From Cyanobacteriota bacterium (GTDB lineage Bacteria > Cyanobacteriota > Cyanobacteriia > Thermostichales > Thermostichaceae): 64,000 nucleotides of DNA. Under the pieces are notes generated by a model that was not told the origin of the DNA, did not search any database, and was given only the letters and a program-made list of their open reading frames with translations. Location: NCBI GenBank assembly GCA_033764955.1, contig JANRIL010000045.1, positions 1 to 64,000 on the forward strand. The letters are read 5' to 3'. Shown in pieces: positions 7,395 through 63,100 of the stretch (within the stretch, counting starts at the first letter, position 1; each line of letters starts with the position of its first letter). The position numbers and the translations under genes are program-made.

Positions 7395-7400
7395 AACGGG

Positions 7401-12600: not shown

Positions 12601-13215
12601 TGACGCTTCGGGAAGGGGGGGGCGCTGGGGAGTAGTATTTTTTTCGGGAGGGCGCTGGGGAGGACGCACCAAGGTTGCGGAAGCAGCCTCAGCAGCAGCA
12701 GACCGACTCGGACGTTGGGGCACTTCGGGCGGGAAAGCGGTTTCGGCGGCGGACGGCGGAGAAACCTCCGCAAGTGGAGGGCGAGGAGTGGAGATCTTTT
12801 CTCCAACGGGTCTCCGCACCTCCAAGATATGCTGTGGACGGTCGTTCCGGCTGGGTTTGGGCTGAGGTCGGGGGGGGGTGGCGCGGGGCTTACTAGGAGC
12901 TGGCGGGGAGGGGTTGGAGTGGGTCAAATCTCCCCGCACCTGCTGAGCCTGCTCACGGGTAATTGTACTGCTATGGCTCTTATAGGGAATCTCTAGGCGG
13001 GTACAGACATCCATAACATCGCGGTTATCCCGACCCATTTCTCGTGCCAAATCATAGATGCGAACTTTATCGGGATCCTTTTCAGACACCGCCACCTCAG
13101 AGGTCTCGCTGAGAGAGGCTGCTCCACTGCCGGAGGGAGGATCGGTAGGGGGGGAGGGATCCTGCCAAGAAGGAGGATGCTCATGAGCGAGGGAAGTGGT
13201 TTCGGATGGGGTCAT
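9700..13215 (-). CDS. infB: Translation initiation factor IF-2 with long Pro-rich N-terminus
   Basis: [11 protein letters not shown]-domain; [42 protein letters not shown]. Confidence 0.98.
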
Positions 13216-37313: not shown

Positions 37314-37593
37314 GGATCTTTAGCTGTCAAGGAGTCGGTTTTCTTTACCGTTTTGTGGGTTCAAGGGGGCTGAGTTGACTATCTGCATGGCATGGATCCG
37401 TGTTAGTCAAACCACTGAGTCTGAGCTAAGGTCGGTATCGAATCTTCCCCTGACTTGACTGCTTCTGGAAAGTCTCCCTTCCACTAGTCGTAGCCTCCCC
37501 TTAAGCAAGGCTGCAAGTTTCTAGCCGCTCTCGCACCTTAAACTTTTGATGAACCTTGTCCTAAAGTATGAAGTGTAGTTATAGGAGGCAACC

Positions 37594-37869
37594 ATGCTTC
37601 GAGTTTTCTCTCTCTTGGCAGCCCTGCTCACCTCTATCGTCGGATTTTCTGTGTTTAGCTCTAGTGCCTTAGCCGATGATGATCGCCCTAATTTTGGGGA
37701 TCGCTTTGATAATTTGGATGGAGAACGGTTGAAGGATTGGTTAGATGATCGTTTCGATGATGACGATGACGACGACGATGATGATGACGATGATGATGAT
37801 GACGATGATGATGATGACGACGATGATGATGACGATGATGATGATGACGATGATGATGATGACAACTAA
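37594..37869 (+). CDS. Small secreted protein with a 36-residue poly-Asp tail
   Basis: RBS AGGAGG, signal peptide ending ALA, GAY run at 37756-37863. Confidence 0.75.
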   Translation: MLRVFSLLAALLTSIVGFSVFSSSALADDDRPNFGDRFDNLDGERLKDWLDDRFDDDDDDDDDDDDDDDDDDDDDDDDDDDDDDDDDDDDN

Positions 37870-37924
37870 CTACTAAGAGCAAATCTTCTCAATCTGGCTA
37901 GAAATTTTTCCCTGTTTTCGGGCG

Positions 37925-42963: not shown

Positions 42964-43222
42964 GCGGTTGGCGGATAGCGGTTGGTTTGTCCATACGGCC
43001 ATTCATCAGACCATCGAATCCATAATGAGATGCTCTATACCGGGATCTTTGATGAAGTGTGGGAATCTCTGCCATTGTTATGAGGTTCCCTAAAGCGTCT
43101 TTTGGGGAAGGGATTTAGAGAAAGTCTGAGCCTTAAAACCGCCACCTTTGCAAGATCCAGCATTCCTCGTTTAGGCTAGAGAAATCTGCTGAAAGCCTCT
43201 CCAGAAGCGAGCTTTAACCTTA

Positions 43223-43270
43223 TCGGGATGACAGGATTCGAACCTGCGACCCCTTCGTCCCGAACGAAGT
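43223..43270 (-). tRNA. 3' fragment of tRNA-Pro(CGG); probable att site of an integrated island
   Basis: Minus strand CTTCG-TTCGGGA-CGAAG-GGGTC-GCAGG-TTCGAAT-CCTGT-CATCCCG-A; no D arm or 5' acceptor strand upstream. Confidence 0.85.
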
Positions 43271-43336
43271 ATTGCTAGCTTTTGTGTCTACTACGGGGAA
43301 AGCGATACAGCCATTCTCAATAAGATCTCCTACCAT

Positions 43337-43519
43337 TCACCAAACCTTGAAACTCTTTTCAAACAATCGCTGAGATACCTCCACCGCCCAGCAACCTTGG
43401 GGATCCTCAGTGGCCACCAAAGCCACGGATCCAGGATAGAAGCCAAAGCGTTCCTGATCTGCCAGCCAGGTTTGATAGCGGCTGATGGCTACTTCAATCT
43501 GATGATCGGTGTGGCTCAT
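43337..43519 (-). CDS. Small hypothetical protein
   Basis: 60-aa ORF co-oriented with the tightly packed small-gene cluster. Confidence 0.4.
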   Translation of the reverse strand: MSHTDHQIEVAISRYQTWLADQERFGFYPGSVALVATEDPQGCWAVEVSQRLFEKSFKVW

Positions 43520-43543
43520 CTGGGAAGGGATCCGGTTGTGGGG

Positions 43544-43837
43544 TCAGGGTTGGGATCCCCCGTCGAGTCGTTGAACGATATGCCGAATTTCGCCCAGCAG
43601 GATATCAAAGCGTTGATCCTGTTCAGCTTGGCGTTGCAGCATGGCAGCTATTCTCTGATCTTGTTCAGCCTGGTGCTGAGAGACTCTGAGAACTTGATCC
43701 GCTAGGATCCCCACCTGTGACACTAAGCCCAGATGAGCTTGAGTCAACTGATCCACCCGTCCATTAGTGGCAATCTGTGAATCCGCCACCCGCTCGATCG
43801 CCGCCGCCAATCGGTCAAACTTTTCTTCATCCGTCAT
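43544..43837 (-). CDS. Small coiled-coil protein (paralog of 8719-9084)
   Basis: ATGA overlap with the upstream ORF; internal QAEQDQR repeat; ends GSQP. Confidence 0.65.
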   Translation of the reverse strand: MTDEEKFDRLAAAIERVADSQIATNGRVDQLTQAHLGLVSQVGILADQVLRVSQHQAEQDQRIAAMLQRQAEQDQRFDILLGEIRHIVQRLDGGSQP

Positions 43838-44088
43838 CGACTTCCCTCCCTGAGGATTAGCAACAGTGAGCCAGCAATCACCGCGATGGCCGCTGAAGCG
43901 ATCAGCGTGTTGGCACGGTTGGCGGTATCGCGGCTGAACTCAAAGAACCGTTCATCCCACCGCTTTACCTCTGTTTGCAGTTCTTGACGGCTGGATGCCA
44001 TGTCCGAGCGGATCCCTTGGAGTTCAGTATCCATCCGCTCTACAACTGCCAGCACATCCACCAACGTTGGTTCACGGGATCCTGTCAT
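43834..44088 (-). CDS. Small coiled-coil protein with C-terminal TM helix
   Basis: EVKRWDERFF..LIASAAIAVIAGSLLLIL; ATGA overlaps on both sides. Confidence 0.65.
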   Translation of the reverse strand: MTGSREPTLVDVLAVVERMDTELQGIRSDMASSRQELQTEVKRWDERFFEFSRDTANRANTLIASAAIAVIAGSLLLILREGSR

Positions 44089-44294
44089 GCTGTCTCCTCC
44101 TTAGTTGCTTTGATCAGTCCTTTATCTTTGGCTCGCTCGATATCTTCAATAATCAGCTTCAAGACATAGTTGCTGATTGTTCTGTGATCTGACTCTGCCA
44201 AAGCCTCCAGATGTTCTTTCACATCTGGGGGGATCACGAACGAGACTCTGGGATTCTTGGCTGGCACTGCAATACGTTTAAGTGTTGCTATCAT
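44085..44294 (-). CDS. Ribbon-helix-helix (CopG/Arc-like) regulator
   Basis: PRVSFVIPPDVKEHLEALAESDHRTISNYVLKLI. Confidence 0.8.
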   Translation of the reverse strand: MIATLKRIAVPAKNPRVSFVIPPDVKEHLEALAESDHRTISNYVLKLIIEDIERAKDKGLIKATKEETA

Positions 44295-44324
44295 TCTCAC
44301 CTTTTTTAGCGGATTGTCATTAAC

Positions 44325-44388
44325 AGTATGCACCGTACAAAAATAATATGCAAGGTGCTTGACGTTTAGAGTATGCACGGTGCATACT
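44325..44388. promoter_or_regulatory. Three operator-like TATGCA-N-GTGCA boxes overlapping a putative promoter between divergent genes
   Basis: Perfect palindrome AGTATGCAC-G-GTGCATACT (44370-88), variants at 44325 and 44347, TTGACG at 44359. Confidence 0.65.
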
Positions 44389-44498
44389 AAAAGGCATGGA
44401 AGCAAACGGGGTAGAGCACAAGGCGGCAACGCTAGGTAAAGCCCCCGGCCTGAGAGAGGTTAACTGCTTGCATCTGCAACCATTACTGGAGACTGACG

Positions 44499-44843
44499 AT
44501 GATTGCCAAGTTAATCAAGATGGCTGACGGAGTGGTAATGGCAAAGCCTAGCCCCAATGTGCGGGTTCTCTGGCATCACAACAGTGGTGAAGAACATGTG
44601 GTGGCTTACCTGGGATTTAACGATGCTGATCACGCGCAGCACTGTTACCGCTGGATTGCGGCTAACTTCGGAGCTTACGACCGCAAGACTAACGCTGGGG
44701 TTTGCAAACCCCGCAAGGCTGAGCGGGTGGATAGCTGCCCATTGGAAATCAAGTGGCATTGCCCGGATTGTCCTATCACACAACACAAGATGGTCGAGTT
44801 AGTTTCCATTAATTCCACTTCTCCGAAGAAAAGCGAGCTATAG
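44499..44843 (+). CDS. Hypothetical mobile-element protein whose 3' end is the terminal CRISPR repeat
   Basis: Open frame reading into the repeat (..MVELVSINSTSPKKSEL*). Confidence 0.55.
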   Translation: MIAKLIKMADGVVMAKPSPNVRVLWHHNSGEEHVVAYLGFNDADHAQHCYRWIAANFGAYDRKTNAGVCKPRKAERVDSCPLEIKWHCPDCPITQHKMVELVSINSTSPKKSEL

Positions 44844-45575
44844 CCAGTTTTCGCTGAACGGCTCAACCAAAGTTTCCATTAATTCCACTTCTCCGAAGAA
44901 AAGCGAGCTCCAAGCCGCAATAGCACTATCCTCAGACCCTGTTTGGAGAGTTTCCATTAATTCCACTTCTCCGAAGAAAAGCGAGTAGACAAGTAGAACA
45001 GATGAGTCTAGAGCAAGCTAAGCAGTTTCCATTAATTCCACTTCTCCGAAGAAAAGCGAGGATAGCGGACCATTTCCACCGATGCCGCGAGCAAAGTTTC
45101 CATTAATTCCACTTCTCCGAAGAAAAGCGAGTTAGGGCTTGTCAGGCGCTAGGGAAGCCCGTAAAAGGTTTCCATTAATTCCACTTCTCCGAAGAAAAGC
45201 GAGCAACTTAATTAGCTCTAATCCCACAGAATGTTTAGTGTTGTTTCCATTAATTCCACTTCTCCGAAGAAAAGCGAGCAAAAAATTGTCAAGCAGTGCC
45301 AAGAGGAAGGAATTGTTTCCATTAATTCCACTTCTCCGAAGAAAAGCGAGGTCTACTAATTAAACAACCACAGCTTGCTGAGCACTGTGATGTTTCCATT
45401 AATTCCACTTCTCCGAAGAAAAGCGAGCCCTGCTTGATTTGAAGCGGGACGCCATTTCTGCCCTCAAGGTTTCCATTAATTCCACTTCTCCGAAGAAAAG
45501 CGAGTACGGTATATCTCAGGCGATCGCCGCCGAGACTGAGTTTCCATTAATTCCACTTCTCCGAAGAAAAGCGAG
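44802..45575 (-). CRISPR. CRISPR array: 11 identical 36-nt repeats, 10 spacers (34-42 nt)
   Basis: Plus-strand repeat GTTTCCATTAATTCCACTTCTCCGAAGAAAAGCGAG at 44802, 44872, 44950, 45025, 45096, 45168, 45243, 45315, 45392, 45469, 45540; the minus strand ends GAAAC. Confidence 0.98.
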
Positions 45576-45765
45576 TCCCCTGAATTCTAGCCTGCTCCCA
45601 GAGCCGGATCCAGGGTTGTCGATCGACAGGGTCTTGCCATAGGGTGCTAATCCCTCGCGATTTTTCCCTGCCCATGCGCCTAAAACCCTTACCCCACAAG
45701 CGATCGACCGGGTCAACCTGAGAATCAGGGTTTGGGGTCTGTCGAAGACCCGATTGCTCAAATCA
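45576..45765 (-). promoter_or_regulatory. CRISPR leader
   Basis: Non-coding segment between the helicase stop and the first repeat, with repeated GACC..GTCGATCG motifs as in cyanobacterial leaders. Confidence 0.6.
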
Positions 45766-48700
45766 TTAATGTAGAGCATCATAGGGATCCTTTCGCCTTT
45801 GCTTGAATAGTTTGGGATCGGTTTGAGGCATAGGCTCTGACCGAAACCACTCATAGCAAATAAGTTGCACATCTTCCTGGGTAAAAAATGTCGAGTCTCG
45901 ATCGACTGAAGAAAGCTCTTGGTACAATCCCTCATCAATAAATAACTCATCCAATAAATGGATCAGATTGGAAATATCCCGATCCTGCTGGTAGATCTTC
46001 CAGAATGTTTTACAGTCTCTTTCATAGGTACGAATACCTTTAATCTGCGTCACTAAGTTAAGCACCCGTTGTTGTGCCTCCTTGGTCACCGAATCAAGCC
46101 CATTGTGATCTTCTGCCTCTGTTAAGCAAAGATAAATCCGTCTCAACCACTGAGGTAACGTGGGTCGTAAGAAAGAACTGCTCTGACGTTGATTGAGCAA
46201 AGTCAGGAGATTCTTGATCGCAGGTTGTAACACCTGAAAGATCTCACCATCAAAAGGAGCCGGTGGTAAATTATCAGGTTTTGCAAACTCTCCAGGCTGA
46301 CAATAAAGTAGCTGGAAGATCGAACCCCAGTCACTTTGAAGCTGACTGGGATCCACAGCAATCCGACCTGCCAGTCGGGGGTAGAAGTGCCAGAAGTGGC
46401 GATCTTTAACCCGAAAGGCTAAGAACAACCCCTCCTGTGGGGCTTGATAGCGAGTGCTATGAATCCCGATTGGGATCTCCTCCACCGCTTGCATCCCCGA
46501 CTGCTGAATGAACTCCAGAAGTGGGAACTTCATTTCATCCATAGAAACCAAATCTACTTTGGCCTCCAGAGCCCGTAGCACCTCATTCTGTGCGCTCGGG
46601 GATTGAGCTTCCTTCAGCAGCCGGATCTCTTCTAATGAGCGTTCTGAAATCACCTCGCCCAGCACACTGGCATCCAGACCCACCTGCTGATCGATCAACG
46701 CAATCCGCTGCTGCAACCTCTCTACTAGCCCTAACAACGACTCCAGACCTTGCTCAGGGAAGCCATTGATAATCATCAACTCCGCAAATGGGGATCCCAT
46801 TCGGTCAATGCGGCCTGCTCGCTGGATCATCCGCACCGGATTCCAATGCAGATCGTAATTGACCAGAGCAGCCGCCTCTTGGAGGTTTTGTCCCTCGGAT
46901 AATACATCTGTGCAGATGATCAGATCGATTTCCTCTTCAGGTGAGCATCCTAGTTCTTGATCCAAGAGCCGATTGAACTGGGGAGCAAATCGCCTCACCA
47001 GGGCTTCCCGCTGCCGGTTCGGAGTTTTGCCTGTGAGCAGTTCTATTCGCAGACTTCCCGAAGAATGACGGAGAGCTGCACGATTCTCTGCCATGGCCTG
47101 AAGCCACTCTGTATCCTCTAATAGCTGCTGGTACAGATAGTCGGCTGTATCTTTGAAGTAGCTAAACACAATCACCTTCTCCTGCTCCAGGCTGAGCATC
47201 ATTTGCTTGAAGGACAGCAATTTGAGATCAAAGTCTTCCCCAGCCTGTACCTCTGACTGAATACGATCTATCCCCTTGATGATCTGATTGAGCACATCCT
47301 GATCAGCTCGAATCGATCGAGCTAATTCCTCCAGGTCATAGTCCGTGGGATCCACCCTGGGTAGAGATGCCAAAACCTCTTCCACAGAATCATCCACTTC
47401 TTCTGCCTCTAGGGCGATCAAACGTCGATATCGGGATCCGTCCAGCAGGTGGCCTTGATGGAGGAGATCTAAGAATCGTTCTTGAAAGGCAGCCTGCCAA
47501 CGAATGCTGTATTCGAAAGCCTTGATCGAACTCTCCAGCCGCTTGAGATAGAGCGTTTTCATCAGGCTCGTGAGCACTTCGTTGCGCAACTGCCCTTCCG
47601 TTGGCTTAATCTGCCTCTCTCGCAGATAGTGGCCTAGGTTATAGGGAGCTAGAAAAAGCGCTTCAATGCAGGTGACCCAACGACCGTAGAGACCTTGAAA
47701 GCTATTCTCAAAGTTGTAGGTAAACTGTCCAAGGATCCGACGAGGAAAGCGGATTTCCTGACCTCCGATGATGATCTTTTCTCCCGCCTGCTGACGTTTT
47801 AAGACATCCATACGGGAACGACGCACCATGGTCTGAAACAAGAGCTCTGTGATCTGAGCCTTGCCATTATCCAAATCCTTAAAGAGTTGAAATAGATTGG
47901 GGATCCCCCAGCTACTGTAATAGCGATCATCATTGCGAGTCAGTAATAACACCTGATGATAGAGATCGAAGATTGTATTGTTGATGGGGGTAGCTGTGAG
48001 CAGTACCACCCATTTGCGACGACGTCCCCCACAAATTAGGCGTTGTAGGTTGGTATAGCGGGTGGTTAACTTATTGCGGAAGTTATGGGACTCATCCACA
48101 ATAATGATGTCGAAATAGCTGTAACGTCGGCTATCGAAATCAGGTCGTCCCATTTCCTCCTGGGACAACAAATTGGCCATCAGGCCAAATTCCCTCAACT
48201 TCGGTTCCCACACCAGGTTACGAACCTGAGCTGGGCTGATCACCAGTGCGCGAGGCACATAACCGGGTTGTCGTCGCTCCGCGAGAACATGGTCGACGAG
48301 ACGCAAGCCTATGTAGGTTTTTCCCAAACCCACAGCATCAGCAACAATGGCACCCCCATGACGTTCCAATAATTGTAGGGCTCGCTCGAACCCTTCCTGT
48401 TGAAAATCTGCAAGTTCGAGAGTTGTTGCCTGTCCCTTGACCGTCGGATTCTCCTTCGGTTGGAAAAGAGTATAAAGGCAACGCATCAGGATCTGGTGAG
48501 GAGTATAAGCTCGACTACCAAATTTGGAACGTTCCAGCTCAGCAATTAATTTGGATTTGTAATCTTTATCTACACTGGGATGATCCCAAAACTCTGTGAA
48601 CCAGGACTTGCGCATCTCCTGAGCTGCCTGGGCATCTGCGAGCAAGACATTTAACTCGGTATTGCCTTCCAACCCAGGGACAGTGAAATTGCTGGATCCC

Positions 48701-49119
48701 ACGATGCTGTAACTGGGGAATAAGTAGGCTTTAGCATGCAGAAAGGGAGTGCGTTCTCCAGTGGCTCCATACAGCCGCACATCCACATGATCTTGGTTGA
48801 GAAAAGCAATCAACCGATCAATACATTGCTTGTATTCCAATCCGAAAGTGGAGGACTCTAACTGTCCCTGAAGTTCACGGCGTAAATAGTCTTGCAGATC
48901 AATTCGATCCGGTTCAGCAGGCTTAATGGTAGGGTCCCGGCCAATCAGTAGACGAAGGTGGCTAAGTTTATTAAGGGCTCGCTCTAGCCTGATCCAAGCC
49001 TCGATACGGAAGAAGCCGGTGGCAATATCTAACTCAGTCTGTTTCTCTAAAAAGATCAGTCTCTGAATCACTGTTGCCAGCTTGTTTTTCTGGTTATCAA
49101 TGTAAGTGGGTAACGACAT
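45766..49119 (-). CDS. PLD-nuclease / SNF2-family helicase fusion
   Basis: LHAKAY..VGSSNFT (PLD HxK); ADAVGLGKT, DESH, TATPINN; SEGQNLQ..NYDLHWNPVRMIQRAGRIDR. Confidence 0.92.
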   Translation of the reverse strand: MSLPTYIDNQKNKLATVIQRLIFLEKQTELDIATGFFRIEAWIRLERALNKLSHLRLLIGRDPTIKPAEPDRIDLQDYLRRELQGQLESSTFGLEYKQCIDRLIAFLNQDHVDVRLYGATGERTPFLHAKAYLFPSYSIVGSSNFTVPGLEGNTELNVLLADAQAAQEMRKSWFTEFWDHPSVDKDYKSKLIAELERSKFGSRAYTPHQILMRCLYTLFQPKENPTVKGQATTLELADFQQEGFERALQLLERHGGAIVADAVGLGKTYIGLRLVDHVLAERRQPGYVPRALVISPAQVRNLVWEPKLREFGLMANLLSQEEMGRPDFDSRRYSYFDIIIVDESHNFRNKLTTRYTNLQRLICGGRRRKWVVLLTATPINNTIFDLYHQVLLLTRNDDRYYSSWGIPNLFQLFKDLDNGKAQITELLFQTMVRRSRMDVLKRQQAGEKIIIGGQEIRFPRRILGQFTYNFENSFQGLYGRWVTCIEALFLAPYNLGHYLRERQIKPTEGQLRNEVLTSLMKTLYLKRLESSIKAFEYSIRWQAAFQERFLDLLHQGHLLDGSRYRRLIALEAEEVDDSVEEVLASLPRVDPTDYDLEELARSIRADQDVLNQIIKGIDRIQSEVQAGEDFDLKLLSFKQMMLSLEQEKVIVFSYFKDTADYLYQQLLEDTEWLQAMAENRAALRHSSGSLRIELLTGKTPNRQREALVRRFAPQFNRLLDQELGCSPEEEIDLIICTDVLSEGQNLQEAAALVNYDLHWNPVRMIQRAGRIDRMGSPFAELMIINGFPEQGLESLLGLVERLQQRIALIDQQVGLDASVLGEVISERSLEEIRLLKEAQSPSAQNEVLRALEAKVDLVSMDEMKFPLLEFIQQSGMQAVEEIPIGIHSTRYQAPQEGLFLAFRVKDRHFWHFYPRLAGRIAVDPSQLQSDWGSIFQLLYCQPGEFAKPDNLPPAPFDGEIFQVLQPAIKNLLTLLNQRQSSSFLRPTLPQWLRRIYLCLTEAEDHNGLDSVTKEAQQRVLNLVTQIKGIRTYERDCKTFWKIYQQDRDISNLIHLLDELFIDEGLYQELSSVDRDSTFFTQEDVQLICYEWFRSEPMPQTDPKLFKQRRKDPYDALH

Positions 49120-49135
49120 ATAGAGCACCGTCCTT

Positions 49136-50485
49136 TCATATTTTGCACCGATATTTGTGCAGAGTCAGAAGCGCTTTTTTCTCGATCTGGCGCACCCGTT
49201 CCCTGGTGATATTCAGGAGACCACCGATCTCGGCCAGAGTGTGCGGGTCATTGCCGTATAACCCAAAGCGGCGGATTAGAACCTGCTGCGCCTTTGGGTT
49301 GAGTAAGGAGAGAACCTTCCGGATCCTGGCCTGAAAATCCCTCTCCTCACAGATGTCTTGCGGGGTCTGGCTTTCATCCAGGATATGATCAAGCAGGCAG
49401 CTATCCTCAAGGTTGGAAAGTGGGGCATCAAGGTACCCCATCCCCCGATTCCAGTCCAGCAATTGTTGAATTACTGCCACAGTTAATGAAGAGACCAAAG
49501 CCAGATCTTTGGCAGAAGGAGTCTGACCCATCTGCTGGGATAGCTGTTGAGCCAGCTTCTTGAGCTGAGATAATTTTTCATGGACATGTTGGGGGAGTCG
49601 GATCAGTCTCCCCTTTGTGGCCACACCCCGACTGATGGCCTGCCGGATCCACCAAGTGGCATAGGTAGACAGTCTCGCCCCCCTGGCATATTCAAACTTC
49701 TCGATCGCACAGATCAAGCCCAAGTTGCCCTCCTGGATTAGGTCTAGTAGATCGAGCCCCCTCCCTTGATATTGCTTGGCAATGGAGACAACCAGACGCA
49801 AGTTGTGGGTGATCAACTTCCCCCGAGCCTGCACAGCCTGCTTGGTATTTGGGAATACAGCTATCTGGCGAAACAGGTTTACCTCTTCTGCCTGATCCAG
49901 AAGGGGATAACGCCCGATCTTCTGCAGGTAGTCCCCCAGGTTATCTTGCAGCAGATCCCGTTGGTCTGCCCGCACAGCTTCTTTCTGCTGACTGGTCGCG
50001 TACTCCACCATCTGATGTTGGTGTTTCTGGCTAGCTAGAAGAGTCTTTTCCCCTAAAACCAAGTTGCGGATCCAGTTGAGTTCTTGGTGGGAGGGATCCT
50101 GACAATTGATCTTGAAGCTATAAGCTTTATCTGCTTTGCCACAGCTAGTCACAATCAGGCTGCGATAGCCATCAGCAGTTGCCAGCAACAGATAGGATTC
50201 TGGACGTTTCGCCAGACGTCTGGCGATCTGTTGCATCAACGATCCCATCCCTTCAGTTTTGGGGTTGACTTCAAACAGCAGCACCACCTGACGAGCGTAA
50301 CCCTGAGAGTACTCCGCCAGAATATGGGCAGCCTGCAATTTTTCTGACAAATGACACGGCAGCTCCAGCCCATCTACATCCAAGGGTTGTGCCACCAAGC
50401 CATAGCCCAGAGATCCAAACAGGTTGGCCACCTCGCTGGCGGTTTTAATTGATTGAAGGTCTTGCAGATCCAGTTGAGTCGTCAT
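49136..50485 (-). CDS. RpoD-type sigma-70 factor with an atypical ~180-aa N-terminal domain
   Basis: [62 protein letters not shown]. Confidence 0.9.
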
Positions 50486-50637
50486 AGCCCTGCTCCCGTT
50501 GTCTGGAGCCACTCTAAGCGGGATCCCCTGTTAAACCCTGACAATAAAAAGTATTGGAGATTCTGAGTGAATGCCCTGAGAACTATTGCTAGACAAAAAT
50601 TCCAGTCGGTGAGAGAGAAGCCGAACAATACTTTCTT

Positions 50638-52641
50638 TCATGAGCTTTTCGACTCAAGATCGGCTAAGGGATCCCGGTAGAGCGCTGAGATTGCCAACCC
50701 TGTGGTTTGAATCATCTGCCGTAGAGGCTCTGGACTGATCACCAACACCTCTCCCCCAAAGCCCAGGATCCATCGCTTCAGATCAACATTCTCTAGCGAC
50801 CAGAGGGGCAAAACCACCTTGAGCCGGTGAGGGAACTGAGGATCACCGGTGGGAGGCAAGCTGAAGAGAGACTGGGGCCGTGAGGATCCCGAAATTCGGG
50901 GGGACATGTGCTGATACCTAAAGCGACGGGTGCCCTCACTGACAAAGGGAAAGATCCGGTCGCTGAACCAGAGTTCTAGGGTGAACTGCGCTTTTTGGCG
51001 TTCTTCAGGATGACGGCTGAGAATCTGGCTCTGCAGACGTGGATCATTGCCCAGAAAGATCCCAGCGCTGACATCGTAGAGCTTGTGCAGACGCTCCAGG
51101 GCCGCTAACTGTTCTTTGCGAGAGCGCTCTGCACAGTGCCGCAGGTGGAGAAAGAGCCGATCCAACCGCTCAAATCGCATCAGGCCATGCTTCTTCCCGC
51201 CGTGGTATTCGCAGCCCAAGTACCAGGCGATTTGATGAAACACCAGTTGCAGAGGCCAGAGGCGAAAGATCTCAGATGCTTCTCCAGGAAAGGTGGCTCC
51301 TGGGAGCCGTTTGACCTCCAGCAACTCTCCTTGTTCCATCGCTTCCTCGACCACCTGTAAACCCCGACGATCCGCTAGGGTGCCAGAGGGAGCTAGGGTC
51401 GGATCCACGATGGACTGATTGCCCAGTTGGCGAATGGGATAAAGCTCAGACGTATCAATGCGACTGAGGCGCATGCGCTGATCCACCATTTCGTAGACCG
51501 CCTGTTCCCAGGGGTTCTCCAGGGTATGACTGCTTACTTGCAAGAGCCGATAGATCTGTTTGAGTTCATGGCGACTGAAGAGGCCGGAGTGGGTAAAGTA
51601 CCCCCGTTTCATAGGAAATGGCGGCAGGATCTGATAGGGCTTCAAAACCTTTTCGATATCTTTACGGATGGCATCCCTGTTTTGACCTTTCACCCAGCCC
51701 TGCTGCTGAAGTCCCTCGCTTAAACTCTCCAGGCCGCCCAGTTCGGGGTCAAAGTGGAAGGGTTGGGTCAAGATCAGTCGGATGGTGTAGAACAAGCGAC
51801 GGAAGCTCTCCCAATCTGAGTAAGGATGAGTGGCAAAAGCCGTAGGACTCAGAGGTTCTGGGTAAACCAAGGGCTGATCATCCTCCCCTGAGCCTAACAG
51901 CCCTCCCTGCTTGAGCCAGGCGAGATCCTCAGTCAGCAAATCGGGAGCGGCATAGATGGATCCTTTTTCAGCGGCGATGCGGTGAGTCATCTCCTCCAGG
52001 GTGCTGCCAGGATGATGGATCAGAACTGAGAGGAGATGGAGCAAACGCTCAAAATCAAGCAACCGAGAGTATCCGTGGAGGGTGACATGTTGAGTAGCGT
52101 TCTGTCGGTTGATCAGGGTGCGGGGAATACCTTTGATATTGGTGAGAATCTGTTTTTGGGTGGGCAGGGATCCCGATAGATCTAGGGCAAGCACATCCAG
52201 AAATCCCTCAGCCGGAACAGGTGGAAAGTGTTTCAAGGACTGAGCCATCGCTTCGATAACAGCGTCTGGTACCTGTCTTGACCGTTGCTGGTTTCGTTGC
52301 TTGCAGACTTCTATTGGGGTGGTCAGATGCCATCCGATCCAGTCCAAGGTGGGGAGCTTTTGCAGCAGATCGAGTCGCCAGGAGCGGTGAGCATTGGTGG
52401 CGTCATAAATAATCGAGAGTCCTTGCTGAAGGGCTTGATTGGCTTGATTTAGGACTTGCGCTTCAATATCAGGCCAGTGCCCCTGAATAGTGGGATCCCC
52501 GTATAGGTCTTGGCGAATAGCATCGGTGGAGATGATCTGATAATCGGTCAGGGCCTCAGCCAAACAAGCAGCCAAAGTTGACTTGCCACTTGCTGGAGGC
52601 CCAATGAGCAGATGGTTAACTCGGGAAAGATCTGGAAACAT
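50638..52641 (-). CDS. P-loop kinase (AAA_33) - WYL domain regulator
   Basis: IGPPASGKST, DATN, RSRQVP kinase motifs; WPLQLVFHQIAWYLG..RFERLDR WYL; WILGFG..VISP WCX. Confidence 0.88.
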   Translation of the reverse strand: MFPDLSRVNHLLIGPPASGKSTLAACLAEALTDYQIISTDAIRQDLYGDPTIQGHWPDIEAQVLNQANQALQQGLSIIYDATNAHRSWRLDLLQKLPTLDWIGWHLTTPIEVCKQRNQQRSRQVPDAVIEAMAQSLKHFPPVPAEGFLDVLALDLSGSLPTQKQILTNIKGIPRTLINRQNATQHVTLHGYSRLLDFERLLHLLSVLIHHPGSTLEEMTHRIAAEKGSIYAAPDLLTEDLAWLKQGGLLGSGEDDQPLVYPEPLSPTAFATHPYSDWESFRRLFYTIRLILTQPFHFDPELGGLESLSEGLQQQGWVKGQNRDAIRKDIEKVLKPYQILPPFPMKRGYFTHSGLFSRHELKQIYRLLQVSSHTLENPWEQAVYEMVDQRMRLSRIDTSELYPIRQLGNQSIVDPTLAPSGTLADRRGLQVVEEAMEQGELLEVKRLPGATFPGEASEIFRLWPLQLVFHQIAWYLGCEYHGGKKHGLMRFERLDRLFLHLRHCAERSRKEQLAALERLHKLYDVSAGIFLGNDPRLQSQILSRHPEERQKAQFTLELWFSDRIFPFVSEGTRRFRYQHMSPRISGSSRPQSLFSLPPTGDPQFPHRLKVVLPLWSLENVDLKRWILGFGGEVLVISPEPLRQMIQTTGLAISALYRDPLADLESKSS

Positions 52642-52644: not shown

Positions 52645-54315
52645 TCAATTCATCTTCATATCATCATTGAGTTTGTCGATGATCCACTGTCTGATGTCGG
52701 TGTACAGGTAATAATCATCGCCTTCGATAAAGCGCTGCCTCTCTTGTCTGGGGAGTTGTAGGAGAGGAGAGCATAGAATACTAGACATGACTTTAATGAT
52801 CTCGTTATAGTCACAAGCATTTTGATCTCTTCCTTCGTTGAGTTCCTGGATCCTTTGTTTTGAGAAACCACGCCCGTCATGGATCAAATCGTTTCGCTTC
52901 CAGATCCAATACTCCAGTTTGTCAAGATAATTGGCGCACTCCCTCCAGCTTGAGATCTCCTGGCTGCTGGCAGAACCAAGATTCTGGCGTATCTCAATCA
53001 GGATTTCCACGAAAGCACGCTTGCTTTTTCGAGAGAAGATTTTATATTGATCATTCTGTCGAGAGTAATCTAGATCTCCAACAAAATTAGACTGGCCATT
53101 TATCAAGTCCGACTTCAATTTGTCGATATAGACGATTCCTCGATTGCCAATGTATTTTTTGCCTCCCAGCTTCTCCGCAAGAATATCCAATATTTCCTCG
53201 CAACAGGAGGAAAGCCGGGAAAGGAAATGAGCAATTTGGTCAATGTCTTGATAAAGCCTGCATTGGGTGTACAGATTCAGTAGAGTACTATGACTCTGAC
53301 TTAGATCAATCGAGGGAAGTTGGTCATCATTAAGGCTTCTGGCTAAGTCCAGATCCAGGTTGAGTAAAGCATCTGCAAGGGTCAGACCATTGATAACGAC
53401 TTCTAAAGAGGCTTTGGTTGAGCGTACTTGTTCTTTTTTTAAGGCCTTATGCACAATTTGAAATGTCAGGATGGAGCGCCAGTTCTTCAGCACCTGAATA
53501 GCTCCAGAGAAATCCCATCGTTCCAGTAGCAGCTTCACTACTCGATAGTTCTGAGTGCGCTGATATTGCCAGAAGGAGGTTCGGGTACATGGGGATGGTT
53601 CTCCCAAAAGTACTTTCCGTGTTGAGAGAACGGGATCTAAAAAAAGCAGCTTGGGCAAATTGGCAGTGATCGATTGCAATCGGAGGGCTGTTTGCATCTG
53701 GGGAGTCCCGCCCTTGATACTGACAAGCACCTCCTCATTAGGATTAACGTTGTCGACAAAAAAGCGATAGTATTCGTTCAGGAGCGGATCCTGTTGATTG
53801 AGCTGGATATCCTTAGGAATCAGCCGTTTCAGAAAAAGAATATCTTCTCGTTGAAGATGCCTCTGGCTCCACATCTTCATGATCTCAAACAGGAAACAGG
53901 TATCCTGATGATGTGGACGGGTTTGATCAGTGACGAAGATGTTGATCTTCGTAACAGAGAACTCCTCAATAGCCGTGTGGATCACCCCCCAGATCCTGCC
54001 GAGACGGATCCGCACTTGCCAGGATTCTGGATCCTGCCGATAGGCAGCTAGGAGCTTTTCAGTTAACTCACGAAAGCTGTAGGAGAGTCTGCCGTTGCTT
54101 TTGGGTTCGACATTTACATCCAGTTCACTGCAGAGATCACTAGCGATGAAGTCTTCTCGGCTATTTCTCTCCCATATTATATTTTCATCTTCTGTTAGTT
54201 CTTCAGGGTTTTCATTTGGTTCATTCCGATCAAAGCCCACAGGAATGTAATACTCAAAGCCCTGGAGCTTCACAGCCAAATCAGAGGTGCCGATATTAGC
54301 GATCAGAATAGCCAT
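52645..54315 (-). CDS. CARF-HEPN type III ancillary ribonuclease (Csx1/Csm6-like)
   Basis: ILIANIGTSDL, VTDQ..QDT, SIKGGTPQM CARF-like motifs; RNDLIH HEPN motif; lies downstream of the cmr genes. Confidence 0.72.
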   Translation of the reverse strand: MAILIANIGTSDLAVKLQGFEYYIPVGFDRNEPNENPEELTEDENIIWERNSREDFIASDLCSELDVNVEPKSNGRLSYSFRELTEKLLAAYRQDPESWQVRIRLGRIWGVIHTAIEEFSVTKINIFVTDQTRPHHQDTCFLFEIMKMWSQRHLQREDILFLKRLIPKDIQLNQQDPLLNEYYRFFVDNVNPNEEVLVSIKGGTPQMQTALRLQSITANLPKLLFLDPVLSTRKVLLGEPSPCTRTSFWQYQRTQNYRVVKLLLERWDFSGAIQVLKNWRSILTFQIVHKALKKEQVRSTKASLEVVINGLTLADALLNLDLDLARSLNDDQLPSIDLSQSHSTLLNLYTQCRLYQDIDQIAHFLSRLSSCCEEILDILAEKLGGKKYIGNRGIVYIDKLKSDLINGQSNFVGDLDYSRQNDQYKIFSRKSKRAFVEILIEIRQNLGSASSQEISSWRECANYLDKLEYWIWKRNDLIHDGRGFSKQRIQELNEGRDQNACDYNEIIKVMSSILCSPLLQLPRQERQRFIEGDDYYLYTDIRQWIIDKLNDDMKMN

Positions 54316-54321: not shown

Positions 54322-54900
54322 TCACTCAGAATCGAAGTTGACTTTCTCATAGATGTCTCTCATGGCCAGTTGGCACTGGATCGAGGGCAGCTCAACCAGG
54401 GCTTCATGATCGGTTATATCTATCAGGATCCACTCTCTTTCGTTTTGCTTGCGATAATGCTCTAGTGCTGGAGTGGATTGAGCCACAATCAGATACTCTT
54501 GCAAAGAAGAAAGTTGGCGATAGCGGCTGAATTTCTCTCCTCGGTCATAAGATGCAGTAGAAGGCGATAACACTTCTATGAGTAGGGTGGGGTTCAGCAG
54601 GGTATCCAGCTCACCGTCGAGAAACTGGGGATCCTCACAGGCCACGACGATATCGGGGTAGGTGTAGAACTCCGCCTGATCTACGGCCACCCGCATATCC
54701 CCCATATAGATCTCACAGGGTCTGGAGCGGAGCTGACTATGGAGACTGGCAGCAATATTGAGAGAGATCAGGTTGTGTTGACGGCTAGCCCCGGTCATGG
54801 CCACGATGTCACCATCAATGTATTCGCTCTTGAACTCGGCTTGCCGCTCTTGAGTTAGATAGTCCTGTGAAGGGGTTTTCGGGTAAGGGTGAGCGATCAT
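54322..54900 (-). CDS. Uma2-family endonuclease
   Basis: KSEYIDGDIVAMTGAS..H, YPDIVV, IEVLSPST..DRGEKF. Confidence 0.9.
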   Translation of the reverse strand: MIAHPYPKTPSQDYLTQERQAEFKSEYIDGDIVAMTGASRQHNLISLNIAASLHSQLRSRPCEIYMGDMRVAVDQAEFYTYPDIVVACEDPQFLDGELDTLLNPTLLIEVLSPSTASYDRGEKFSRYRQLSSLQEYLIVAQSTPALEHYRKQNEREWILIDITDHEALVELPSIQCQLAMRDIYEKVNFDSE

Positions 54901-59500: not shown

Positions 59501-60088
59501 TTACGTACCCTGCGGAAATAAATCTTTGACTTGAAAGGTAATTTCAGGCAGAGCTAGAGGAACGAGTATGTCACGTCCTTTAGCCACCTGTACCTGCTGA
59601 TAGGAATCCTCTAGAGGTTGTCTATAGGTCGTGATCTCTTTGGCCTTGATATCAACCACCCAGTAGTCTTGAATTCTGGCCTTTGCATAAATGGGCATCT
59701 TGATCTTCTTGTCGATTTCAATACTGGAGTCCGCGACTTCGATCACCAGCAGAATATCTTCGGGATAGGGATGGTGTTCTGTATAGTCGAACATCGATCC
59801 GCGAGCGATTGTGATGTCAGGTTCAGGTTCGGATCCCTGCTCAGTTAGAGTAATCGGATCTTGAGTTATTAAATAAAACCTCTCTCCTAACCGCTCTCGG
59901 AATCGTTCCGCTATCCAGCGCCCAATGATGACATGACTGACTCCTTTGGGTGACATATTTGAAACAATTCCTTCCAGCAATTCCACTCGATCGTCATGGG
60001 TCAACAGGCCGTTCTCAATCATGCGATGATAGCCCTCAATGCTCCATAGATGGATGTTTTGGAGCTTGACTTGATTTTGAAGTTGCAT
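59501..60088 (-). CDS. Uma2-family endonuclease between cas10 and cmr3
   Basis: YHRMIENG..RVELLEG, EPEPDI, LVIEVADSS, YAKARIQDYWVVD. Confidence 0.9.
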   Translation of the reverse strand: MQLQNQVKLQNIHLWSIEGYHRMIENGLLTHDDRVELLEGIVSNMSPKGVSHVIIGRWIAERFRERLGERFYLITQDPITLTEQGSEPEPDITIARGSMFDYTEHHPYPEDILLVIEVADSSIEIDKKIKMPIYAKARIQDYWVVDIKAKEITTYRQPLEDSYQQVQVAKGRDILVPLALPEITFQVKDLFPQGT

Positions 60089-60114
60089 ATCGACCTCTAA
60101 AAAATGACAGCGAT

Positions 60115-63100
60115 TTAAGACTTCATCCATTCATCCCGTTGCTTTTTCTTATCCACCCAGAACGCAGAGAATTTCAGAAGATTACCCAGATCTGCAGGGG
60201 TAGTGCCAAGCGGTGTAGATTCTTGAGAATGAGGTTGTTTCAAAACCCACTTCTCCCAGTCATTCAACCAACTCACCAAGGGATCCAGAATCTCTTTTTT
60301 CAGCTCCTCAGATCGATCCCGTCGAGCCAAGATAGTGGTGGCCGCTAGTTGGAATAGCCGATTGTGTTCAGAGACCACACAGCGTTGCGGTAATTCCTCC
60401 GCCAGACGGTGTAATACAGGCCCCAGATCTAGATCCGGCCCCTTCTCCAGCCAACTCCACCAACTGTCCAACAAATCACCCTTCATCAATGCCTCTAAAG
60501 TATTGCCAGACTGGTAGATCACCCGAAAGCAGAGACCATCCTTACCAGGGATCTTTTTGGCCCGATTCTTCTCCGCCTCCCAAAGGTTTTCCAAAACGGT
60601 GGGCAACGGGATCCCTTTGTTGGCAATGACGATCCCCATGCTCATAGTTGCTCCCTCGCCCATGGTAAAGAGTGGACGATTGGGTAAACCTGAGAGGGAT
60701 CTGTCCCGTGGTGGATGCCAGAACCCGCCTCTACTTGTAAACTCGCTATAAGGATCTTTATTACCACACCAGGCTGCTCGCAGAGAGAGGAGATACTCAG
60801 GCAAATCCTCCAGAGGAAGCAAAGCCATGACATCATCCCCACCGCTGTAGACCACCCTGCCACAGAACCTTTTCTCGGTGAGGTAAGGAACCAGGCGATT
60901 GGAGAAATCCAAGAGTGCTCGATTAAGTCCCACATGAGTGGCTGGTCCCATGCGCTTTCTGACATTCTGCAGAAGCTCCTCCCATTCGGAGCCTTTCTTC
61001 TTCAACTGATCAGCAACACCTTCAGCCAGGTAGTTTTCATAAGGATGCAGCCTGGATCCATTGACATACTTGCCCATGCTGTCTCCATCCGCCAGCACGA
61101 TCACCCACCAGTCAGAGGGACTACCCCCTTTTAACCCCACCTGTTGATGAGCCTGATCCACGGCATAGCGGAGATCTTTTGCAGCATTGCAGAGTTCTTC
61201 TGCCTCCAAGTCCTGAAGACCCAGATCATCCACCAACCACTTTTTCGAGAACATCACTCCGTTATAGGGTTGATCTCCCCCTTGAGGATTAAATTGGGCA
61301 TCCGTTTTGGGCACCTGAAAGGGACGACGAGTAAGAGATCCAAATCGCTCCCGGTGTTTGGGCAGATCCTGCCTGATCTGTCGCTCTAGCTCCCTCCAAT
61401 ACTGTTTCACCTTCTCTGGAGTATCATGAGCAAAACGAGCAGATGCGATGGAGCTAAGGTTTGGGAATCGGATCAGGTTCTCCAAATCATCATCATCTTC
61501 AGAAACCCCTAGACACTTAGCAATCCCTCCATACTTCCAGGCCATGCGTTTGGTGAGTTCCACCGCATTCAGCATCTCAGATCCATTGAAGAGTCCTGGA
61601 TAGACTTCTGCCATTAATTTCCAGAACATGCGCAGGGATCCGGCTGGCAGACCAGCTCCTTCACAGAACTTATCTCGATACAGCAGATTGGGATGAACCG
61701 CACTGTACATGCCTGAGAGAGTGGATCGTTCTCCGGGAGCCACCGGGATCCGCCAGGTACGGGTATTTTTGATGGCTTGGATCGACTGGCCCAAACGGGT
61801 TTGCAAACTGCCCCACCAGGTGCCCACATTCAGTTTCCCGTAGGCATTTTCTTCAGGAGTAGTGGGTAATTCAACTCGACTTTGAGCCAGATTTTGTTGA
61901 GATTCTTTCCATGATTTATAGCTAGGATCTTTAATTTTTGCTTTCAAAGGTTTGTCAGGATCCCCCAGGGGAACCAGGGTCCAGTAGCTTTCCCAAGTAT
62001 GGTCGAGCTGAGCATCCCAGAGCTTATTCCACTCCCAGTTAGATTGCTGGTGCCACTTCTGGAATTCCCTTTCATAGTTGGTGTGAGAGCCTTCTGTTGT
62101 TCCCATGGTTGGGGCAATTTTTTTCCAGATCTCTGGCCCACTTTTTTCCAAGTGTTCGATGCAAGTTTGCCGGATATGATCCCTCACCTGGATCCCGATC
62201 TCTTTCCAGAGTTTGCGCATCTCCAGGGTGAGTTCTTCCGCAAAGGCTTTGGCCTCTTCTCTGGGTACCAGAGCCGTGATCACGTTGGGGAACCCGGCGG
62301 TGCTCAAGCTGTTAGAACGTCGAAGGTTGAACCGACTGACAGGAGTGCTGTTCTCACTGTCGATCTCTCGAAAATAGCACTCGAACTCGGGGAACTTCTT
62401 CAAGATCCAGGCATCAATGATCTCCTGTCCCCAGAGAGAAGGAGTGATCACAGCATCCGGGCCATAGCGGTCGGCAATAAGCCAGCAGAGACGAGCACTC
62501 ATGTAGTGCAGCAAGTAGGATCCAGACCAAAAATCCAATAGTTTACGCGAGGACTTAATGAACTCCTGCACTGGCGAGAAAGTGAACAGCAAAAGATCCG
62601 CATGGGAGACCAAATTGGGGGACTGTGCCTTCTCAGGGAATAAGGCTCCTGCCAGAGCCGAGACGATACTGTTGTGATCATGGACGGCACAATCGGGAAT
62701 GCGGGTGTCGGCAGGCAAAAGCAAAGCCGATGGACTCTTAATGCCAGTCTCGAGAGCGACCAACTGAGGATAAAATCGCCAGAACCACCAGAACACCTTC
62801 TCGGGCTCCCCATGACGCACCTGCTCGTAAGGGATGATCCGAGCCTCGATCTTGGCGATTTGAGCTTCAGTGAGCTGGTTCCAGATCTGGATTTTCTGTT
62901 TCTCGCCAGACAATGGATGACGCACCTCCACCTCAGTGCGTCCCGATAGCTGGGCCGCATCCTTGAAAACTCCTTTAATGCTGAGGCGATCAGATGCTGC
63001 CGCGATATGATCCGCCAAAACCCCTTGTTGAGAAGCCCACCAGGACTCTAGTTCCGCCTCGTGATGATACAACTCCACCACCTGCTCCCAGGGGCCTTTG

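Follow-up and report, generated by a model that had tools for sequence, protein, structure and literature searches.

A cyanobacterial sigma-70 factor encoded beside an HKD-SNF2 helicase shares its N-terminal domain with adenine methyltransferases and may belong to a restriction-like module

We analyzed a window of 64,000 nucleotides (nt) from a cyanobacterium of the family Thermostichaceae (assembly GCA_033764955.1, contig JANRIL010000045.1, positions 1 to 64,000), in which a gene for a sigma-70 factor is directly followed by a gene for an HKD(PLD)-SNF2 helicase within a type III-B CRISPR (clusters of regularly interspaced short palindromic repeats) locus. On the minus strand, the order is cas10/cmr2, Uma2, cmr3, cmr4, cmr5-like, cmr6, Uma2, csx1 (CARF-HEPN), kinase-WYL, sigma, helicase, leader, and array. 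The initial annotation of this DNA had placed the pair between the cmr genes and the array leader, which is what we observe, with Uma2, csx1, and kinase-WYL also intervening after the last cmr gene and ahead of the sigma gene. The sigma factor's N-terminal domain (here, the N-domain) is shared with methyltransferases that adjoin the same helicase family in other cyanobacteria, and we tentatively propose that it couples either kind of DNA-reading partner to the motor nuclease. All features of the locus described below lie on the minus strand.

The sigma gene (49136..50485) encodes a protein of 449 residues, from an ATG at 50485 to a TGA stop at 49138-49136. The open reading frame (ORF) 49136-50512 encodes the sigma-70 protein and opens with a GTG; the ATG at 50485, where the initial annotation also began the gene, is the conserved start, invariant in 6/6 relatives, and is favored because the GTG at 50512 falls within a conserved element consisting of TTGTCA (50544-50539), 22 nt, and TAGAGT (50516-50511). 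This element, like the intergenic stretch upstream of the sigma gene in which it lies (50486..50637), is kept in 6/6 relatives; its spacing is too wide for the usual sigma-70 promoter, so that a regulator may instead bind there.

The sigma core, comprising regions 1.2 to 4 (the C-terminal 270 residues; 49139..49942), is recognized by Pfam, with matches, in the numbering from the GTG, to Sigma70_r1_2 at 190-213 (E = 4.8e-6), r2 at 233-302 (3.7e-20), r3 at 312-386 (3.3e-9), and r4 at 401-451 (1.4e-14), all of which pass their cut-offs. A Pfam scan of the whole protein gave no match to region 1.1 (Sigma70_r1_1) at E ≤ 0.1, in agreement with the initial description of a complete sigma core fused to about 180 residues that do not resemble this region. 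With regions 1.2, 2, 3, and 4 all present, the protein is a group 1/2-like sigma-70 factor; it does not qualify as a group 1 (primary) sigma, having no region 1.1 match and falling under the cut-offs of the NCBIfam RpoD models (TIGR02997 score of 275 versus a cut-off of 384.5). Its top NCBIfam matches are the cyanobacterial RpoD subfamily and the C-terminal part of MzaA, all under their cut-offs, and 16 homologues share the architecture of N-domain plus sigma. The genome encodes six further sigma-70 genes, the closest being 43% identical. Regions 2.3-2.4 and 4.2 (TRERVRQIE) align nearly letter for letter with the primary-like sigma of the genome (C9), and these promoter-reading helices are invariant or almost so in our sigma alignment (A1), so that the window sigma should read ordinary -10/-35 elements. 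A scan for consensus promoters found 5 sites versus 6.1 expected from shuffled sequences, that is, no excess.

The helicase gene (45766..49119; ATG at 49119, alternative GTG at 49128) encodes a predicted motor nuclease of about 1117 residues. Its ATG follows the sigma stop after a 16-nt gap that contains a Shine-Dalgarno-like AAGGA motif, the same distance as first annotated. Pfam assigns an N-terminal PLDc_2 domain, SNF2-rel_dom, and Helicase_C, and the PADLOC profile C3a139 HKD+Snf2 (PDLC01075) matches at E = 1e-60 (residues 10-875 versus profile positions 5-816 of 948). The HKD motif residues H, K, and GSSN as well as SNF2 motifs I (GxGKT), II (DExH), and VI (QRxGRxxR) are invariant in 14/14 aligned helicases. 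In the window's family, P or S occupies the aspartate position of HxK(x)4D. The protein carries the motifs of the PLD/HKD superfamily (HxK...GSxN) and of SNF2 ATPases, from which nuclease activity is predicted. The last 250 residues (45769..46518) form a family-specific C-terminal domain with no Pfam family, for which a profile search of the PDB gave a best E value of 0.14; hhalign of the N-domain against this domain returned a probability of 0.1%, with no sign of related folds.

With respect to the N-domain (residues 1-181; 49943..50485), we distinguish an alpha/beta core (1-145) and a long helix (146-179) that leads into region 1.2. Pfam returned no family at E ≤ 0.05 for the N-domain alone and left residues 1-189 (GTG numbering) unmatched in the scan of the full protein. 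A phmmer search with residues 1-181 against 1.84 billion representatives of 50%-identity clusters (E ≤ 1e-3) yielded 45 matches, 39 of which were then scanned with Pfam. Among these 39, 29 combine the N-domain with sigma-70, and one (P0033, 1091 residues) is an Eco57I/MmeI_Mtase/N6_Mtase/TaqI_C methyltransferase with the N-domain at its start. A further match bears MmeI_hel, the helicase-spacer domain of MmeI, and seven are short and without a family, the four of these read by sequence being methylase-type fragments; an insect cuticle protein was discarded as a false match. Of the 37 matches to a profile search among longer proteins, 15 are methyltransferases, some of them incomplete, 21 are sigma factors, and the one left is a fragment; a third kind of partner is not among them. 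These methyltransferases bear out what the initial annotation had inferred, that the N-domain resembles the N terminus of such enzymes. PADLOC classes the N-domain methylases as "REase_MTase_IIG" (E = 7.5e-133). Every named N-domain record is cyanobacterial; the library matches themselves carry no taxonomy. In our gene scan, as first noted, the window had no methyltransferase partner, and no second copy of the N-domain, on a methylase or otherwise, was found in the genome, where tblastn with a partner methylase matched a sole 24%-identical gene on another contig. Self-marking of the methylase kind is therefore not possible for the window pair. Elsewhere in this genome, a second, unrelated methylase-like gene and a helicase-like gene about 10 kb apart (contig C14, 66425-67540 and 78003-78314) possibly represent another defense system.

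An alignment of 15 N-domains (A2) was used for an AlphaFold2 model (predicted local distance difference test score of 88.8, predicted template modeling score of 0.75) and as the query for genomes. In an exhaustive structure search (VIA), the type IIL enzyme DrdV gave the best match to the model with its N-terminal domain (7lo5_A, residues 2-143; Z = 6.5, root mean square deviation of 4.1, 118 aligned residues), followed among restriction-endonuclease folds by 9y1l_B (5.8), 1wdj (4.9), 3ijm (4.7), BpuSI (4.5), and Hjc (4.2). The topology of the model is compatible with the alpha-beta-beta-beta-alpha-beta core of such folds, at modest fold scores (best Z of 6.5), and the nearest ESM Atlas cluster is BpuSI_N (0.92, a value that the tool treats as no more than a lead). 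No viral structure was matched by Foldseek, and a PDB sequence search with the N-domain profile gave nothing useful (one ribosomal protein, E = 1.2). Invariant or near-invariant columns of A2 are L5, F23, G27, Y28, L40, L42, Q67, L70, I87, L91, L99, T103, and P131; a catalytic D...(D/E)xK pattern is not conserved, and the third-strand motif varies (LLFEV, LLFQL, LLLKL, IFLKF). On the basis of the model match and of its position ahead of an MmeI-type methylase, the N-domain looks like a restriction-endonuclease-like domain, and because the acidic/lysine catalytic pattern is absent from A2, it is probably catalytically inactive.

We searched for the pair genome by genome in a census set of 401 evenly drawn cyanobacterial genomes from 156 genera, using A2 as the query, and inspected about 20 kb around 17 N-domain places, mapping the parts by tblastn. 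The N-domain was found in 19/401 genomes (17/156 genera) and the helicase C-terminal domain in 13/401, all 13 of which are among the 19. In each of these 13 genomes, an N-domain gene (methylase, sigma, or both) adjoins the helicase on the same strand. In nine of the ten genomes of the sigma type, the helicase gene follows the sigma gene directly; gaps are 16 to about 40 nt, or the genes overlap. In this co-occurrence search, the two parts are thus conserved together, and with the N-domain also linked to the methyltransferases, the initial annotation's idea survives the refuting condition that it had set. A single-sequence N-domain search returned one relative and an actinobacterial match (L042); the latter was rejected, as the A2 profile does not match it.

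The partner of the helicase differs among loci. A methylase is followed by the orthologous HKD-SNF2 helicase in L024, L025, L027, and L033; methylase, sigma, and helicase occur together in L028 and on plasmid p4 of Planktothrix (L053); a methylase remnant precedes sigma and helicase in L032; and sigma followed by helicase, as in the window, is found in L034, L035, and L037. In L040 (genome G344), the sigma gene is in pieces (9448-10436) next to an intact helicase of 1094 residues, in L036 a sigma gene has no helicase within 20 kb, and L026, L038, and L039 hold fragments only. A stand-alone N-domain ORF in L029 was excluded as evidence, being 85% identical to the methylase N-domain of L027, adjoining a distant (29%) helicase, and probably a remnant. 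Three loci encode giant ORFs of 2151-2387 residues, in which the N-domain and a full sigma-70 core are continued by an extension of about 1900 residues, followed by the same helicase (L030, 9931-17091; L031, 3969-10421; L054, 9322-16191). This extension shows weak matches only to STAND-like (signal transduction ATPases with numerous domains) NTPases (AAA_22, 1.7e-5; NB-ARC, 7e-4), and the rest of it gave no NCBIfam family and no usable ESM Atlas match. Signs of decay include an in-frame stop in L037, the fragments of L040, and a split helicase in L031. In a search of plasmids, 8/8 matching records were cyanobacterial. Planktothrix agardhii No.365 p4 carries in a row the methylase, a 434-residue hypothetical protein, a "sigma-70 family RNA polymerase sigma factor", and an "SNF2-related protein", and on Brasilonema octagenarum pBOCT2 a giant fusion adjoins a "helicase".

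Around these loci we observe integrase, KilA-N/BstA, RES toxin, Tn7-like TniQ/B, PDC-S68, PDC-S70, and ParAB plasmid genes, that is, contexts of the defense-island or mobile-element kind. Some loci contain additional genes. A protein of about 435 residues with no known family lies between the methylase and the helicase or sigma gene in L024 (5258-6574) and L053 (7648-8952); the two copies, from a Nostoc-type locus and Planktothrix p4, are 52% identical, and this optional third gene has distant relatives on contigs C14 and C11 of the window's genome. In L028, the methylase and sigma genes are separated by a KilA-N/BstA-like gene (11993-12811; PADLOC BstA, 4e-27) together with two small ORFs, of which one has a zinc ribbon. 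Two CHAT-protease genes, one with TPR/Sel1 repeats, flank the pair in L034 (genome G192; 284-1675 and 7166-10543) and are reminiscent of the TPR-CHAT partners of defense sigmas (Csx29, DdvA), an arrangement at a single locus that may be due to chance.

A tree of 17 helicases, poorly supported at its base, shows the partner states interleaved: two methylase-only helicases group with that of L028, where both partners are present, and those paired with a sigma only (L034, L035, L037, and L040) fall together with those of L053 (both partners) and L032 (methylase remnant) at 92% support in the Shimodaira-Hasegawa-like approximate likelihood ratio test. The window's family forms its own long-stemmed clade. 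By these sequence relationships, the interleaved states fit a path from methylase only, through methylase plus sigma, to sigma only. Across loci, the helicases are 48-58% identical, and the methylase-type N-domains are 52-88% alike. The sigma N-domain of L028 is not a recent copy of that of the neighboring methylase, a possibility ruled out by their identity of 31%. In a tree of sigma cores, the primary-like sigma of the genome nests among eight N-domain sigmas (97/96 support), the remaining backbone being open; a single clade of N-domain sigmas is rejected, since well-supported branches force at least 2 changes.

Six orthologous islands of the window's family were used to estimate the ratio of nonsynonymous to synonymous substitution rates (dN/dS). 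For the sigma gene it is 0.17-0.26, with 0.17-0.22 in the N-domain and the highest values, 0.42-0.45 in the three closest pairs, in region 4; for the helicase it is 0.075-0.10 and for kinase-WYL 0.11-0.16. In the closest pairs, dN of the sigma (0.22-0.24) exceeds helicase dN (0.04-0.06) by a factor of 4-6, and the linker between N-domain and sigma core is the most variable part (22-59% identity). These sequence comparisons indicate that the sigma is under purifying selection and fast-evolving; it looks functional, as does the helicase with its invariant motifs.

Within the window's family, 5 of 22 other genomes carry the sigma gene, and all share one gene order (cmr, uma2, csx1, kinase-WYL, sigma, helicase), the helicase being followed by repeats in those whose contig reaches far enough. 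An orthologue of cmr6 occurs in 5/23 genomes of the family, which are those with the sigma gene, except one with a cut contig; five sigma-less genomes also have no kinase-WYL gene. The island is thus gained or lost whole, and we count it as a single evolutionary event. Outside the family, inspection of nine sigma-type loci at first revealed neither cas effector genes nor arrays at distances of up to 10 kb. When the locus of G344, a genome from a different family, was extended (L040 with L055), we observed a full type III-B locus (cas10b, cmr3, cmr4, cmr5, two cmr6) with Csx1 and CARF-RelE, ending about 3 kb from the 3' end of the helicase in convergent orientation and with no CRISPR array in between. 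Adjacency to type III-B genes is therefore seen in 2 of 10 sigma-type genomes (counting the window's family as one case), with no cmr locus or array within 10 kb in the other 8. Among these, G192 has repeat-associated mysterious protein (RAMP) genes on the contig of the pair, at a distance of 35 kb; in G107, G160, G180, G296, G364, and G394 they are on other contigs or megabases off, and in G274 they were not found. Of the methylase-only loci, 0/4 have cas genes within 10 kb. The 2/10 adjacency exceeds that of a random locus and is typical of defense islands. We conclude that the CRISPR link is a recurrent co-location and not a requirement, and the place of the pair in a type III-B locus is most simply explained by defense-island clustering that became fixed in one family.

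The CRISPR array itself (44801..45582, by repeat detection) holds 11 repeats of about 36 nt. As a rule of thumb, the repeat end GGAAAC indicates the strand of a CRISPR array; the repeats here end in GGAAAC on the minus strand, so that transcription is inferred to run on that strand. Between the helicase stop and the first repeat is a 183-nt leader (45583..45765), in which TAGAAT (45589-45584) stands 8 nt ahead of the first repeat, its T, A, A, and T positions being invariant in 4 aligned relatives; TAGAAT, TAAAAT, TATAAT, or TATAGT is found before the first repeat in the window and in L048, L050, and L051. From this conservation, the -10-like hexamer is a likely promoter of the array, and it could be used by any group 1/2 sigma. 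The initial annotation had further suggested that the pair forms a defense-linked transcription switch that might drive the array; this finds little or no support here, given the 2/10 adjacency, an array with its own -10-like hexamer, and promoter-reading helices of the ordinary group 1/2 kind, by which nothing singles out the array as a special target. Rfam gave no family in 43000-51000.

Upstream of the pair, the kinase-WYL gene (50638..52641; Pfam and PADLOC) encodes a P-loop kinase (AAA_33) fused to WYL/WCX, 667 residues in all, with weak similarity to polynucleotide kinases and PSTK. It is syntenic in all five relatives of the family and could serve the island either as a regulator that senses a ligand or as a kinase acting on RNA ends. 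Csx1 (CARF-HEPN; 52645..54315) matches PADLOC PDLC01808 at 2e-157. The two Uma2-family genes (PF05685, restriction-endonuclease-like) are insertions in the cmr operon: that at 59501-60130 separates cas10 from cmr3, and that at 54322-54900 follows cmr6. Both are kept in relatives. Elsewhere in the window, a long GAT/GAC run at 37732-37881 encodes poly-Asp at the N terminus of a 114-residue minus-strand ORF (37521-37865).

The usual view of restriction-like systems is that a methyltransferase or specificity subunit locates their targets and that methylation spares the host. One motor-nuclease family is found here with two alternative neighbors, both sequence-specific DNA readers (by the specificity domain of the methylase or by sigma regions 2 and 4) that bear the same N-domain, and in the MANTIS system (the nearest studied relative in architecture, discussed below) a methyltransferase likewise targets a PLD-SF2 effector. 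By this analogy, we propose that the N-domain couples the reader to the helicase and that the sigma acts as a reader. The explanation that we favor, while holding it to be somewhat short of probable, is a two-gene restriction-like module in which the sigma replaces the methylase. The pair of sigma and HKD-SNF2 proteins would derive from a pair of an adenine methyltransferase annotated as "Type IIG" and a PLD-SNF2 motor nuclease, and the domain of about 150 residues common to both kinds of partner would be the adaptor that links a sequence-reading protein to the motor nuclease. The sigma would take, or in some loci share, the place of the methyltransferase as the DNA-reading or recruiting subunit and would bring the ATP-driven HKD nuclease to promoter DNA, alone or within the RNA polymerase holoenzyme, thereby aiming or licensing it. 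From the shared domain and the adjacency, we infer that the N-domain may dock the sigma to the helicase, and further that the sigma would have a targeting role and the pair a defense function. Region 1.1 keeps free sigma-70 off DNA; since the N-domain stands in its place here, the window sigma might be able to bind DNA without the core enzyme. A narrower version, in which the sigma has replaced the methyltransferase and, through the N-domain, delivers the HKD nuclease to promoters or open complexes for a modification-independent, transcription-directed restriction or abortive infection that evolved stepwise in cyanobacteria from methylase only through both partners to sigma only, appears doubtful to us.

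Several observations weigh against the favored explanation. A nuclease sent to ordinary -10/-35 promoters without a methylation mark has no evident means of sparing the host. The sigma-type N-domains are 21-45% identical to each other while the helicases keep 48-58%, which is unlike a fixed interface, and the sigma cores do not form one clade, so that the N-domain was joined to sigma cores more than once, or cores were exchanged. G344 keeps an intact helicase beside a decayed sigma, and G274 retains a sigma without a helicase. As for the fold, the DrdV match (Z of 6.5) is modest and under the caution line of 8 given by the tool, a repeat of the structure search left DrdV (Z of 5.9) tied with an unrelated sex-pheromone precursor fold (Z of 5.9), and Foldseek against the PDB returned nothing at E ≤ 1e-3.

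The relation between the two proteins could also be the reverse, with the helicase holding the sigma inactive through the N-domain until engagement of foreign DNA frees it, the response possibly being the adjacent array and cas genes. The intact sigma core, which is under purifying selection and should read ordinary promoters, agrees with such sequestration, as do the variable linker (22-59% identity), the array directly downstream with its conserved -10-like hexamer, and the giant forms, which join the sigma to a STAND-like NTPase, a typical sensor (albeit by weak matches, AAA_22 at 1.7e-5 and NB-ARC at 7e-4). Precedents for released sigmas in defense are described in the accessible parts of two reports, namely, Csx30-RpoE in type III-E (PMC9825189) and DdvA-DdvS over a CBASS (cyclic-oligonucleotide-based antiphage signaling system)/type III-B island (PMC11506125). 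Nevertheless, the array cannot be the general target when 8/10 sigma-type genomes show neither an array nor a cmr locus at up to 10 kb, release is unnecessary for the methyltransferases that share the N-domain, and an N-terminal tether implies no anti-sigma-like contact with regions 2 or 4; we therefore regard sequestration as rather unlikely. A role of the pair as an accessory effector or regulator of the cmr system, along with csx1 and kinase-WYL, draws on the synteny of cmr, uma2, csx1, kinase-WYL, sigma, and helicase (with the array in some) in 5/5 same-family relatives that have the sigma, on the second, independent adjacency in G344 with its two CARF proteins, and on the C3a139 HKD+Snf2 profile, which the window helicase matches at 1e-60. 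The accessible text of Shah et al. 2018 lists this profile as a type III accessory cluster with 4 members in subtypes A, B, and D (PMC6546367). Set against this are the window-family island, which is present or absent as a unit and so represents one event, the adjacency in just 2/10 sigma-type genomes (with RAMP genes 35 kb off in G192, distant or on other contigs in six, and not found in one), the 0/4 methylase-only loci with cas genes nearby, and the finding of no CARF, SAVED, or other cyclic oligoadenylate sensor domain in either protein by Pfam, NCBIfam, or PADLOC, all of which makes such a role quite unlikely.

Very unlikely, in our judgment, is a decoy or guard function, in which the sigma mimics a primary sigma and the binding of a phage anti-sigma or RNA polymerase-hijacking factor activates the tethered motor nuclease. 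Its promoter-reading and core-binding segments do copy the primary-like sigma, beside which some N-domain sigmas nest (97/96), and the sigma evolves fast: in the closest pairs its dN is higher than helicase dN by a factor of 4-6, and dN/dS peaks in region 4 (0.42-0.45). The idea is pure inference, however; the fast rate is also explained by relaxed constraint, methylase-type partners have no decoy logic, and we know of no phage partner of an N-domain sigma. The least probable account is one of no functional coupling at all, with the N-domain left over as a relic when a sigma gene recombined into the 5' end of a methylase gene, and the sigma being a plain group 2 factor co-transcribed with a helicase. 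Such rearrangements do occur, as the loci with both partners or a methylase remnant (L028, L032, and L053) indicate; decay is seen in some loci (the in-frame stop of L037, the fragments of L040, and the split helicase of L031), and public annotation sees an ordinary sigma factor and an ordinary helicase. A relic would not be expected to be under purifying selection in the sigma context (N-domain dN/dS of 0.17-0.22) or to recur in 29 sigma representatives, each standing for one 50%-identity cluster, and the helicase is never without an N-domain neighbor (13/13), at gaps of 16 to about 40 nt or overlaps that amount to tight coupling.

Under the restriction-like explanation, which we continue to prefer, one motor-nuclease family accepts either a methylase or a sigma as neighbor and presumed partner by way of one shared domain. 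If the pair works together, the aiming of a nuclease can fall to a transcription initiation factor, or else a sigma can be under the gating control of a nuclease; either logic, if true, would be new to bacterial immunity and bears on the wiring between defense and transcription. With two genes, plasmids of named cyanobacteria, and natural variants having methylase, methylase plus sigma, or sigma, the system is directly testable.

Among known systems, the modules of a "Type IIG" methyltransferase with a PLD(HKD)-SNF2 protein are alike in the helicase family (motor 48-58% identical, C-terminal domain kept), the N-domain of the partner, gene order, and coupling; the window pair differs in having sigma-70 regions 1.2-4 where the methylase and its target-recognition domain stood. 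We found no printed description of this two-gene module, nor, in the literature searched, of one that joins a sigma factor to an HKD/SNF2 partner; paper supplements, which might list variants, lay outside this search. Public annotation labels the two genes as an ordinary "sigma-70 family protein" beside an "SNF2-related protein".

MANTIS (Gao_RL, or BREX-related type 2; MtsA-D) resembles the pair in its effector with an N-terminal HKD/PLD nuclease and an SF2 ATPase and in its separate DNA-reading subunit. According to the preprint, the methyltransferase MtsC is the targeting subunit for MtsD, a dimeric PLD-SF2 effector that is no longer toxic once MtsC is lost (10.64898/2026.09.23.753747); the system is treated also in a survey of BREX-related (bacteriophage exclusion) systems (PMC12839542). 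The window motor is, unlike that of MANTIS, SNF2 proper by Pfam, and its partner is a sigma factor; the set of DUF499 AAA+ (MtsA), small MtsB, and MtsC was not found by Pfam and PADLOC in the window or in 14 related loci. The word "sigma" occurs 0 times in the accessible text of the MANTIS preprint, and that of the survey names sigma solely as a fold comparison. DISARM class 1 (DrmD SNF2, DrmC PLD, and DrmMI methylase) shares its SNF2, PLD, and N6-adenine methylase parts, and the helicase matches DrmD at 4e-40, but with 138 bits versus a cut-off of 610; PLD and SNF2 are fused in one protein here, and neighborhood scans of the window found neither DrmA nor DrmB. The N-terminal nuclease domains of DrdV (7lo5) and BpuSI (3s1s) likewise head an Eco57I/MmeI-type methylase with an MmeI_hel-like spacer next (Z of 6.5 and 4.5), whereas the N-domain has no conserved catalytic acidic/lysine pattern and no sequence match to a PDB chain. 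RapA, the RNA polymerase-associated SNF2 ATPase, gave the helicase profile its top PDB sequence match (E = 4e-15), and the window helicase would, like RapA, be an SNF2 motor that encounters RNA polymerase; the match covers 49 residues (motifs V-VI), and RapA has no HKD nuclease and a C-terminal domain without detectable similarity.

On the sigma side, Csx30-RpoE of type III-E (PMC9825189) and DdvS/DdvA (PMC11506125) also involve a sigma gene inside or controlling a type III locus. As far as the accessible parts of these reports describe them, their sigmas are of the extracytoplasmic function kind (group 4) and are held by a cleaved anti-sigma, whereas that of the window is group 1/2-like, with a fused N-domain and a helicase partner, and sigmas of its type mostly lie away from CRISPR loci. 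MzaA of the MZA anti-phage system (NF041931, PDLC02203) is likewise a defense-associated sigma-70 core with a large non-sigma N-terminal part, matched by the window sigma at 4e-79 (NCBIfam) and 4e-51 (PADLOC); the core alone aligns (profile positions 469-703 of 726; 267 bits versus a cut-off of 800), the two proteins have unrelated N-terminal parts, and the surroundings of the window sigma contain no further Mza genes. The known kinds nearest to the sigma form of the module are restriction-like motor-nuclease modules and defense-associated sigma fusions such as MzaA.

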